Assembly: GCA_951406725.2 (NCBI GenBank)
Contig: OX597816.1
Coordinates: 102,176,001 to 102,240,000 of the forward strand
Length of the DNA: 64,000 bases
Origin: Octopus vulgaris
Taxonomy: Eukaryota
Direction: 5' to 3'
This document shows positions 11,455-56,526 of this stretch, in pieces (the stretch's first letter is position 1; each line of letters begins with the position of its first letter). The notes under the pieces were generated by a model that did not search any database, was not told the DNA's origin, and was given only the letters and a program-made list of their open reading frames with translations. Both the position numbers and the translations under genes were made by a program.

Positions 11455-12015
11455 ACATCGAAATTGAACCAATCCTCTGACTGGCACCCGGCAGTTGCCA
11501 GGGCCACTGGACTGACTTGTGTGCAGGTGGCAAGTAAAGAAACACCGTTTCGACCCTGTGCTTGAGGAGATCCATTGAGTCAAGTACACCAACATCAAAA
11601 ATCAATGGAAACTGCAGTTGTGATCCCTGTGCTGGTGGCATGTAAAAAGCACCATCTGAACGTGGCCGATGCCAGTGCCACTTAGACTGGCTTCCATGCC
11701 GGTGGCATGTAAAAAGCACCATCCAAACGTGGCCGATGCCAGCGCCACCTTGACTGGCTTCCGTGCTGGTGGCACATAAAAGGCACCAATCCGATCGTGG
11801 CCGTTGCCAGCCTCGCCTGGCACCTGTGCCAGTGGCACGTAAAAAGCACCCACTACACTCACGGAGTGGTTGGCGTTAGGAAGGGCATCCAGCTGTAGAA
11901 ACACTGCCAGATCAGACTGGAACCTGGTGCAGCCTTCTGGCTTCCCAGATCCCTGGTCGAACCGTCCAACCCATGCTAGCATGGAGACGGGACGTTAAAC
12001 GATGATGATGATGAT
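11455..12015 (+). mobile_element. RTE 3'-UTR-only copy (similar copies at 18050-18530 -, 28650-28850 +, 30985-31324 +, 34660-35090 +, 60175-60480 -)
   Basis: Same ggtggcacgtaaaaagcacc units and ...ttaaacgatgatgatg tail as 20700-21270. Confidence 0.85.
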
Positions 12016-20109: not shown

Positions 20110-21270
20110 AGTAGTTGATAGTTTCCGTTACCTAGGTGACCAAGTCAGTAGCGGGGGCGGGTGTGCTGAAAGTATAACTACTAGAGTAAGAATAGCCTGG
20201 GCAAAGTTTAGAGAGCTCTTACCCCTGCTGGTGACAAAAGGCCTCTCGCTCAAAGTAAAAGGCAGACTGTATGATGCATGTGTACGTACAGCCATGCTAC
20301 ATGGTAGTGAAACTTGGGCTGTGACTGCTGAGGATTTGCGTAAGCTCGCAAGAAATGAAGCTAGTATGCTCCGATGGATGTGTAATGTCAGTGTTCATAA
20401 TCGACAGAGTGTAAGTACCTTGAGAGAAAAGTTGAACCTAAGAAGCATCAGTTGTTGTGTGCAAGAGAGACGTTTGCGCTGGTATGGTCACGTGATGAGA
20501 ATGGCTGAAGATAGTTGTGTGCGAAAGTGCCACACCCTGGCAGTTGAGGGGACCTGTGGAAGAGGTAGACCCAGGAAAACCTGGGTCGAGGTGGTGAAGC
20601 ACGACCTTCAAACTTTAGGTCTCACCAAGGAAATGACCAGAGACCGAGACCTTTGGAAGTATGCTGTGCGTGAGAAAACCCGGCAAGACCAGTGAGAACA
20701 GTCAAAATCAAAATCAAACCAAATCAATACATATATCAGAAAGCAGAACCAAATTGAGGTCGATCAACATCAGGGCCCCCGTGCAGGTGACACGTAAAAG
20801 CACCATCCGTTCGTGGCCGTTTGCCAGCCCTGTCTGGCCCCCGTGTCGGTGGCACGTAAAAGCACCATCCGTTCGTGTTCATTGCCAGCCTCGCCTGGCC
20901 CCCGTGCCGGTGACACGTAAAAGCACCATCCGTTTCGTGACCGTTTTCCAGCTCTGTCTGGCCCCGTGTTGGTGGCACGTAAAAGCACCATCCGTTCGTG
21001 TTCGTTGCCAGCCTTGCCTGGCCCTGTGCCGGTGACACGTAAAAGCACCATCTGTTTGTGGCCGTTTGCCAGCTCTGTCTGGCACCTGTGCGGGTGGCAC
21101 GTAAAAAGCACCCACTACACTCATGGAGTGGTTGGCGTTAGGAAGGGCATCCAGCCGTAGAAACACTGCCAGATCTGACTGGGCCTGATGAACCCTTCCA
21201 GCTTCACAGATCCCAGTTGAACCGTCCAACCCATGCTAGCATGGAGAACGGACGCTAAATGATGATGATA
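20110..21270 (+). mobile_element. RTE LINE 3' end with tandem-repeat 3' UTR and (GAT)n tail
   Basis: ORF 20231-20695 (HGSETW, RRLRWYGHV, RGRPRKTW) overlaps the end of the 61945 element in sequence. It is followed by six ~61-bp units and the ...catgctagcatgg...gatgatga tail. Confidence 0.9.
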
Positions 21271-26571: not shown

Positions 26572-26624
<53 letters not shown>

Positions 26625-26784
26625 ATCGCCATATTAATATGGCATTCTTATAGATATAAGAATAATCGCTGCCGCTGGTCAGCTCCATGAGGCCACCGCC
26701 TTAAGATAGCTATTGATACACGATCTGTATCCATTATAACCTTCGAACAAGGGAGGTCAGCCGCTTCACACTGCCAGTCCGACA

Positions 26785-26826
26785 GCTACAGACGCGTTTC
26801 GGGGTATTGCCCCTTGTCAATGTAGC
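26785..26826 (-). ncRNA. Type I hammerhead ribozyme, U3:A8 core variant
   Basis: Minus strand GCTACA-TTGACAA-GGGG caata CCCC-GAA-AC gc GT-C-TGTAGC. Stem I 6 bp, stem II 4 bp, palindromic stem III, GUC cleavage triplet. Confidence 0.85.
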
Positions 26827-26914
26827 GCAGTCAGACCCCGCAGGTGTCGCCACTGACGTCTCTGTTCGAAGGCTTATATTTACCTAGTTTCAGTGGAATA
26901 CATCCACTTGTTTT

Positions 26915-26975
<61 letters not shown>

Positions 26976-54593: not shown

Positions 54594-56526
54594 CAGCACC
54601 ATAGTCAACTGCTACAAAGCTAAAGGTGATGCTTTAGATAAAAATAACTACAAGGGTATCAAACTGCTGGATCAGGTGATGAAGGTCACAGAGATGGTAA
54701 TAGCCCAACTAATTATGGAGAGAGTCAGCCTAGATGAGATGCAGTCCAGTTTTGTGCCATGTAACAGCACCAATGATGCTATATTTTTGGTAAAGCAACT
54801 GCAGGAGAAATACCTAGCCAAAAATAAACCCCTATACTTTTGTTGACTTGGAGAAAGCCTTCGACAGGGAGCACCGATTCCTTATCTGGTGGGTGATGTG
54901 GAATCTAGGGATAGACGAGTGGTTAGTAAGGGCCTTGTACAGGGATGCTGTTAGTAAGGTAAGGGTTGGCAACGAGTATAGTGAAGAATTCTGGGTAGAC
55001 GTAGGGACACAAAGGATCAGCCCCCTCTTATTCATCATAGTCCTCCAGGCAATGACAGAGGACTTCAAGACAGGCTGCCCCTGGGAGCTCATCTATGCTG
55101 GTGACCTTGCTCTCATAGCTGAATCACTACCAGAACTAGAGAAGAAATTTCAGGTGTGGAAGCAAGCTTTAGAATTGAAGGGCCTTAGAGTCAATATTGC
55201 AAAAACCAAATCACAAACCCCTTCAGGTAGATGGCCCTGCTTGATCTGTAGAAAAGGTGTAAGTAGAAACTCCATAAGATACACCCAGTGTAAGCTATGG
55301 ATGCATAAGAGGTGCAGCAACATCAAAGGGAGGTTAACTGGCATGATAGTTTTTTTGTGCGGCAGATGCACAGGGGCAATAAACACCGAAAATGTTCAGA
55401 AAACAGATTCCATCACATGCCAGGGGAAGAAACTAGAAGTAGTTGATAGGTGACTAAGTCTGTAGTGGGGGTGGATGCTCTGAAGTGTTGCCACTAGAAT
55501 AGGAATCGCCTGGACATAGTTCAGAAAGCTCCTACCTCTGCTGGTGACAAAGGGCCTCTTACTCAGAGTGAAAGGTAGAGTGTATGATGCATGTGTGTGA
55601 ACTGCCATGCTACATGGCAGTGAAACATGGGCTGTGACTGTTGAGGACATATGCAAGCTTGAAAGAAATGAAGCTCATATGATCTGCTGGATGTGTAATG
55701 GCAGTGTGCACACACAACAGAGTGCAAGTGCCCTGAGAGAAATGTTGGACATAGGAAGCATCAAATATGGTGTGCAAGAGAGATGGCTGCACTGGTATGG
55801 TCATGTACTACATATAAATGAGGAGAACTGTGTGAAGAAGTGTCACTCCCTAACTGTGGAAGGAACCTGTGGAAGAGGTAGACCCAGGAAGACATGGGAT
55901 GAGATGGTGAAGCACGACCTTTGAATGTTGGGCCTCAGAGGTCTCAAGAGACCGAGACCTCTGGAGATATGCTGTGATTGAGAAGACCCCGGCAAGTAAA
56001 GTGAGATTACAGCCATAATCTATACCAGTGTTACATAAACAGCCCATTTAAAAGGTACCTCTGAATTGTTGGGCCACACACCGTGCTTGAGGAGACCTAT
56101 TGAGTCAAGTAAAATCAATATAAAAATTACAACCAGAATCTCAATCAAATCGAAATTAAAATGGAAATTGTAGTTGTGTCCGATGCCAGTACTGCCTGAC
56201 TGGCTCCCGTGCTGGTGGCATGCAAAAAGTACCATTCATGCATGAGTTGATGCCAGTGCTGCCTGAGTGGCTCCCCTTGCCAGTGGCACATAAAAAGCAT
56301 CATCCGAACGTGGCCGATGCCAGTGCCACCTGACTGGCTCCCGTGCTAGTGGCATGTAAAAAGTACCCACTACACTCTTGGAGTGGTTGGTGTTAGGAAG
56401 GGCATCAGCTGTAGAAACCTTGCCAGATCAGATTGGAGCCTGGTGCAGCCTCCTGGCTTGCTAGTCTCCAGTCAAACCGTCCAACCCATGCCAGCATGGA
56501 AAACAGATGTTAAACAATGATGATGA
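54594..56526 (+). mobile_element. Decayed RTE RT fragment (plus strand) with 3' UTR in EXOSC2 intron 6
   Basis: ORFs 54586-54846, 54848-55453 and 55607-55924 are consecutive RTE RT pieces; (GAT)n tail at ~56520. Confidence 0.9.

Follow-up and report, generated by a model that had tools for sequence, protein, structure and literature searches.

Non-LTR retrozymes have been described in coral, mussel and axolotl (Cervera and de la Pena 2020, PMC7229834), and the dimer-type hammerhead architecture in PMC4209133. Hammerheads with a U3-A8 core are also on record: U3/A8 is a natural covariation that was active in vitro in earlier work (PMC3088659), and it recurs in ~1,300 motifs of Schistosoma mansoni, in the hammerheads of Cercyon Penelope-like elements (PLEs) (PMC4209133). 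For PLE insertions, 5' truncation, partial tandems, an inverted 5' copy, an optional tail and microsatellite targets have been reported (Craig 2021, PMC8557442). A purified PLE protein was found to cut AT-rich DNA on both strands and to start at two internal RNA sites, which gives the optional tail (Frangieh 2024, PMC11167929), and this pair of start sites and the optional tail are described as PLE-specific (PMC11167929, PMC8557442). In Xenopus, 24 of 57 retrozyme families are homologous to known elements, and PLEs make up 21/22 of those (Li, Clavereau, Pollet, bioRxiv 10.64898/2026.07.22.740005). As far as these sources describe it, the mobiliser of animal retrozymes has so far been inferred from co-occurrence with PLEs or from likeness to their pseudo-LTRs (pLTRs).

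We analysed a 64-kb stretch of octopus DNA (the window), in which a short repeat occupies the minus strand at 26621..26920. This repeat is likely (probability about 0.65) a tail-less copy of a non-LTR retrozyme whose type I hammerhead, with U3:A8 in its core, is predicted to cut the dimer and so lead to a circle, and which was likely inserted into (TA)n by a Neptune-type PLE resident in the same genome. That it is a retrozyme mobilised by a PLE is very probable. Judged by the features that can be read from sequence, the family resembles a non-LTR retrozyme.

Reading of the minus strand from 26826 to 26785 gave a complete type I hammerhead pattern, with a three-way junction open at stem I and an NUH site. 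It is composed of stem I (GCUACA/UGUAGC, 26826-26821 with 26790-26785), the core from U3 to A9 (UUGACAA, with U3 and A8, 26820-26814), stem II (GGGG/CCCC with the loop CAAUA, 26813-26810 with 26804-26801), the GAA (26800-26798), the stem III strand ACGCGU (26792..26797) and C17 at 26791, with cleavage predicted after the C17 of GUC, at 26790..26791. The sequence-only reading had proposed this hammerhead and its U3:A8 core, which were confirmed base by base, and both stems are supported by covariation among genomic copies. When the 64-kb window was searched with a type I descriptor that accepts every Watson-Crick pair at 3:8, 26785..26826 was the sole match, and 40 block-wise dinucleotide shuffles gave none.

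Stem I continues into a rod hairpin of 136 nt (26738..26873, minus strand), which folds as had been described for a rod of about 130 nt and is also supported by covariation. From 26873 to 26738 the rod reached -73.1 kcal/mol (z -7.09; 0/200 shuffles equally good), and the fold of the whole 300 nt had a z of -5.95. The minimum-energy fold of the monomer is inactive: core bases pair with the stem III strand, at 1.5 kcal/mol below the open-core form. Monomeric stem III consists of one pair and a palindromic loop and lies 7 kcal/mol above this inactive minimum, while the ACGCGU palindrome paired with a second copy of itself gives -7.5 kcal/mol. Pairing of the palindrome between the two hammerheads of a dimer is predicted from these energies and from the genomic copies. 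The hammerhead has the dimer-type architecture, and self-cleavage as a dimer is predicted. Comparison with Rfam, a check named in the sequence-only reading, was run and returned no hammerhead family at E<=10, nor at E<=1 on four loci.

The genome (2.8 Gb, 227 contigs) was searched for related copies. The 300-nt query yielded 2168 candidates, of which 40 were scored; full-length copies were 97-100% identical, at least one of them at 100%. The exact U3:A8/ACGCGU core pattern (UUGACAA) had 446 matches against 0 in the control, whereas the strict CUGANGA pattern had 10 against 4, which bears out the expectation that strict searches would miss the family. At least 885 hammerhead copies (control 0) were found with a wider core pattern that permitted C3 and G8 as well as U3:A8. 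U3:A8 was present in all of the first 100 listed copies of this pattern, and stem III, counted by hand, was palindromic in 91 of them (ACGCGT in 41, ACATGT in 50; the other 9 non-palindromic). Among 15 loci fetched for the six U3:A8 matches with a variant stem II and the ten CUGANGA matches, no PLE ORF was found joined to the match.

The copies fall into four subfamilies, namely A (to which the window copy belongs), B (~90% identical), C (~88%) and the older D (~82%, one D copy aligned), all of them with the U3:A8 core. Double CpG decay was considered as a route from ACGCGU to ACAUGU and rejected, the single-step forms being scarce (ACGTGT in 1/100 and ACACGT in 2/100 listed copies); because such intermediates are rare, the difference between the two palindromes is regarded as a lineage state. 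Conservation and covariation of the stems and core among copies, which the earlier reading had put forward as a check, were found in 17 hand-picked rods spanning the subfamilies: pairing was kept in 98.3% of cells, compared with 21-43% in slid controls, and compensatory changes on both sides occurred in 5/38 pairs (two in stem I, one in stem II and two in the rod), where counts are of sequences, not events, and represent about five lineage-level changes rather than 19 independent ones.

Other repeats were observed alongside this family. Four loci (L031, L032, L051 and L054) represent an unrelated, older family of repeats whose motifs resemble hammerheads, three of them U3:A8 and one C3:G8, all with ACGCGU, and two more (L057 and L058) represent a second separate family with C3:G8 cores. 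Runs under four coded organism labels contain part of the element, one of them (X11) with more divergent variants and a head-to-tail joint. None of these runs is recorded as RNA, and the four whose sequences were read are contigs, two of them possibly derived from RNA. The window itself also holds tandem repeats of 62-67 nt, of one family, in three places (11629-11850, 20774-21112 and 56176-56367).

In the flanks of genomic copies, a 64-nt AU-rich segment joins one copy to the next head to tail; the unit is therefore 364 nt long and the window copy is tail-less. The window copy is a single partial unit of subfamily A that covers monomer positions 1-300, has its 3' end at the proximal of two sites, lacks the optional tail (62-64 nt) and differs at two positions from a full monomer elsewhere in the genome (L013:1501-1864). 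As previously read, it lies between two (TA)n target tracts, (AT)23 at its 3' end (26575..26620) and (AT)28.5 at its 5' end (26920..26975), and both of its ends are blurred by a few TA bases. Just upstream of the proximal site are two short hairpins rich in AU (26622..26663, minus strand), which folding and the mapping of 3' ends mark as a candidate binding or start signal for the reverse transcriptase.

The 364-nt unit has a GC content of 42.3%, and its longest Met-started frame, read around the circle, is 28 codons, in agreement with the absence of an ORF noted before. Folded as a circle it reached -134.8 kcal/mol (z -10.7 against 100 shuffles). The description of the locus as a GC- and CpG-rich island held for CpG (observed/expected 0.99 in the 300-nt copy against 0.37 in the window) and only moderately for GC (46.7% in the copy and 58.8% in the rod, against 37.9% in the window). 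Similarly, the proposal of a young monomer of ~300 bp stood as regards its youth, given the near-identical copies elsewhere, but not as regards its size. The broader view of a small non-autonomous retroelement is supported by the non-coding unit, the hundreds of copies and the PLE-type insertions.

A 29-mer lying immediately 3' of the cut site has 564 matches, and insertion anatomy was described from the first 100 of them, which yielded 74 loci in genome order. The 3' ends lay at two fixed sites in 80/89 cases (38 at ~297-312 and 42 at ~364-378), and (TA)4+ was found within 30 nt after 65 of these 80 ends, compared with 2.4% at random window positions. The 85 5' ends were scattered, at 0.005 per nt. 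An inverted part was present in 37/74 loci, and 36/74 were more than one unit long. Partial head-to-tail tandems and inverted 5' pieces occurred among the fetched loci, and the sequence upstream of the monomer was more monomer, an inverted piece or host DNA. Twenty-five distinct arrays with the hammerhead site in consecutive units were found among the fetched loci, the longest among the matches listed having 5 units; both the high copy number and the tandem arrays for which a genome check had been proposed are thus present. No LTR-type arrangement was seen in any locus examined, and target-site duplications, which in non-LTR retrozymes exceed 4 bp when present, were unreadable because the targets are (TA)n. 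The insertions bear the PLE signature of 5' truncation, partial tandem, inverted 5' copy, optional tail and microsatellite target.

The form of the RNA template was considered from the same copies. Just ahead of the cut site, 555/564 copies have the base of the element or a single-base change there, so that ~98% read through the site; since neither 3' end lies at the ribozyme site either, the template should be a ligated circle or an uncleaved multimer. A pile-up of 5' ends at the cut site was rejected as evidence of cleavage: exact ends there (9/564) exceed the 2.2-2.9 expected from the mean rate, but raw counts at control positions were 2 (position 137) and 11 (position 162), and therefore no genomic evidence of cleavage was counted. 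A circular template is somewhat more likely than not. The alternative keeps the same element and the PLE machinery and takes as template an uncleaved linear multimer transcribed from one or a few tandem source loci, with a hammerhead that cleaves slowly or acts purely as a fold to which protein binds. It is consistent with the read-through, with the lack of a pile-up relative to the positional controls, with the inactive fold being the energy minimum of the monomer, and with the finding that PLE RNA with a dead hammerhead inserts normally in vitro (PMC11167929). A ligated circle, however, predicts the read-through equally well, and all four subfamilies retain stems I and II, the palindrome and the 3:8 pair; moreover, the longest array among the matches listed had five units, and array-private variants are common to all units of some arrays. 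We regard the linear multimer as unlikely.

The array variants were compared in 22 subfamily A and C arrays, out of the 25 distinct ones. Units were closer within than between arrays in 21/22, where the rearranged array L168 inflates the between-array mean for A, and in 5/22 a variant was present in all units of its own array and in no other array. An earlier and looser within-insertion test, not fully de-duplicated, gave no effect in subfamily A (4.08 against 4.13 differences). The shared haplotype within an insertion favours repeated copying of one molecule and fits rolling copying of a circle; a homogenised tandem parent fits it too. With regard to cleavage itself, 8/9 Xenopus retrozyme dimers are reported not to have cleaved (bioRxiv 2026.07.22.740005).

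Two further observations concern the cut site. Point changes at C17 were C to A in 5/9 and C to G in 0/9 (C-to-A loci L097, L102, L103, L104 and L105), while two control cytosines together showed C to A in 1/19 (Fisher p 0.007, for copies that are not all independent); an error of the reverse transcriptase at a ligation junction could produce such an excess. At a single locus (L095/L037, G000:C3:179964132), an inverted piece meets a forward array exactly at the cut site through a 6-nt complement of stem I, as would be expected of fold-back from a cleaved RNA end.

A candidate mobiliser was found in the same genome. The search for GIY-YIG sequences gave 6136 candidates, of which 150 were scored, and many of them contained open frames of 781 aa that encode a reverse transcriptase, a CX4CxxC linker and a GIY-YIG domain, 96.5-99.7% identical among 7 copies. 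A C-terminal GIY-YIG with CCHH, a CX2-5CxxC linker and a DKG motif are all present, and the family was assigned to the Neptune type by these motifs as defined in PMC8557442, although it may instead belong to Nematis. This PLE has a hammerhead of its own (UUGAUAA, stem II GGUUC/GAACY, GAA and ACAUGU), located about 65-75 nt from the 3' end of the PLE and found in 11/20 first loci and 9/10 extended loci (two overlap). The motif had 1470 matches genome-wide (control 0), and 98 of the first 100 listed were U3:A8 and none C3:G8. The PLE has two alternative 3' ends 38 nt apart, with (TA)n after both, and its core and ACAUGU palindrome are those of retrozyme subfamily D.

Several features of this PLE family and its loci were observed in addition. 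An upstream ORF in a different frame measures 466 codons in one copy (L087:307-1704), where it overlaps the start of the 781-aa frame, and 346 in another (L084, from 445); canonical PLEs are described with one ORF. The candidate PLE unit is ~4.7 kb long and has many short repeats in its 3' region. In 2/185 loci (L010:2241-2850 and L188:1532-1652), the 3' end of a young PLE has its (TA)n tract in common with a retrozyme copy or lies next to the tract of one, and at L121:800-2030 a diverged PLE ORF fragment (43-61% aa identity) directly adjoins a piece of subfamily D in inverted orientation, a junction that occurs twice at that locus.

This Neptune-type family has a slightly better than even chance of being the partner. 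The pairing is one that we infer, because other PLE families are present in the genome (e.g. L092, 46% aa identical), and the retrozyme might instead be mobilised by one of a different kind (another Neptune-like family, Naiad, Hydra or Poseidon) or by a LINE. Outside the core motif, the element and the 3' region of the candidate PLE are without sequence likeness (best blastn 9 nt, E 1.5), the GIY-YIG candidates scored were a small part of those found, and several PLE clades are reported to target (TA)n, including Naiads listed for octopuses with a (TA)n preference (PMC8557442). Against such a mobiliser, the candidate PLE is young and abundant, and the rare core, the ACAUGU palindrome of subfamily D, the two 3' ends and the target are all in common; Naiads are described as inactive remnants in cephalopods (PMC8557442), and the two internal start sites with an optional tail, described as specific to PLEs, argue against a LINE. 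A mobiliser other than the Neptune-type candidate is thus improbable.

The copies might also be solo pLTRs or 5'-truncated ends of an autonomous PLE, as PLE insertions are mostly truncated and leave solo hammerheads (PMC4209133) and Xenopus retrozymes resemble pLTRs (bioRxiv 2026.07.22.740005). This reading is already largely refuted and very improbable: no PLE ORF runs in sense into the retrozyme 5' end at any of 185 loci compared at the DNA level, nor did one in a tblastn scan, what precedes the monomer is the monomer, inverted piece or host DNA mentioned above, and the element hammerhead has canonical stems of 6 and 4 bp, whereas that of the PLE is minimal. Being short, non-coding, dispersed and hairpin-rich, the element might also be taken for a tRNA-derived SINE, a MITE or a satellite that resembles a hammerhead by chance; this can practically be dismissed, as the shuffles gave no descriptor match, the stems covary, no tRNA gene, pol III boxes or B box (1 mismatch allowed) were found, and the ends are polar, with termini not fixed on both sides.

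In the proposed mechanism of the PLE-mobilised retrozyme, tandem copies would be transcribed, and two hammerheads, joined by pairing of their ACGCGU palindromes, would cleave behind GUC; a host ligase would close the unit-length RNA so released into a circle. The PLE protein would nick AT-rich DNA and begin cDNA synthesis inside the RNA, at either of two AU-rich sites that lie ~170 and ~235 nt downstream from the cut. Reverse transcription would then follow the circle over 0.3 to 5 units, and the inverted half could stem from priming on both strands of the target. More speculatively, a retrozyme unrelated in sequence to its mobiliser may parasitise the Neptune-type PLE through a copied rare core, the U3:A8 core and the ACAUGU of subfamily D allowing a mixed hammerhead dimer in trans that would dock on or cut the PLE transcript, while the younger subfamilies with ACGCGU would pair mainly with themselves. 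The mixed duplex of ACGCGU with ACAUGU reaches -0.8 kcal/mol, compared with the self-duplex energy given above; we consider this extension improbable.

The octopus genome pairs a young retrozyme (copies 97-100% identical) with a young open-frame PLE that has the rare core, the target and the two-site 3' end in common with it. As the cDNA start sites have been mapped from hundreds of insertions, a direct assay of trans-mobilisation is feasible, making this a testable pair of parasite and mobiliser. CUGANGA descriptors and Rfam overlook whole families of retrozymes and PLEs (885 and 1470 motif copies). A literature search, mostly without subscription papers, found no report of a U3:A8 retrozyme or of a cephalopod retrozyme, and the main text of an octopus repeat paper (PMC13282606) leaves ribozymes unmentioned; its repeat library may hold the family unlabelled.

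U3:A8 cores (PMC3088659, PMC4209133) and non-LTR retrozymes (PMC7229834) are already published, and what is plausibly new is a U3:A8 retrozyme of canonical fold whose insertions clearly bear the marks of a PLE and for which a young PLE is a plausible partner. The octopus element resembles the metazoan non-LTR retrozymes as described in PMC7229834 in its non-coding unit within the 170-400 nt range (mussel 350-390), GC below 50%, canonical type I hammerhead, weak palindromic stem III, head-to-tail repeats and highly self-paired predicted circle. It differs from them in carrying U3:A8 in every subfamily, in being known here from genomic copies, and in having mostly dispersed insertions of 0.3-5 units with PLE-type tails and inversions. 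The compensatory swap of the tertiary 3:8 pair is as in the Cercyon PLE motifs (PMC4209133) and the variants of PMC3088659; however, the Cercyon motifs are minimal, heterogeneous and mostly single, whereas the octopus swap occurs in a canonical 6-bp/4-bp type I fold, within a young non-autonomous repeat and together with a co-resident PLE.

Two internal 3' start sites, an optional tail, AT-rich targets, 5' truncation, partial tandems and an inverted 5' copy are common to the octopus insertions and to those of Anolis Poseidon PAc (PMC11167929) or PLEs in general (PMC8557442). Unlike PAc, the octopus element is without an ORF, its tail is ~62 nt rather than 30-40, and its candidate partner is of the Neptune type by motif, not Poseidon. 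Retrozymes also co-occur with PLEs in Xenopus, where trans-mobilisation has been proposed (bioRxiv 10.64898/2026.07.22.740005), but the link between retrozyme and PLE in the octopus rests on insertion anatomy and a rare common core, not on homology.
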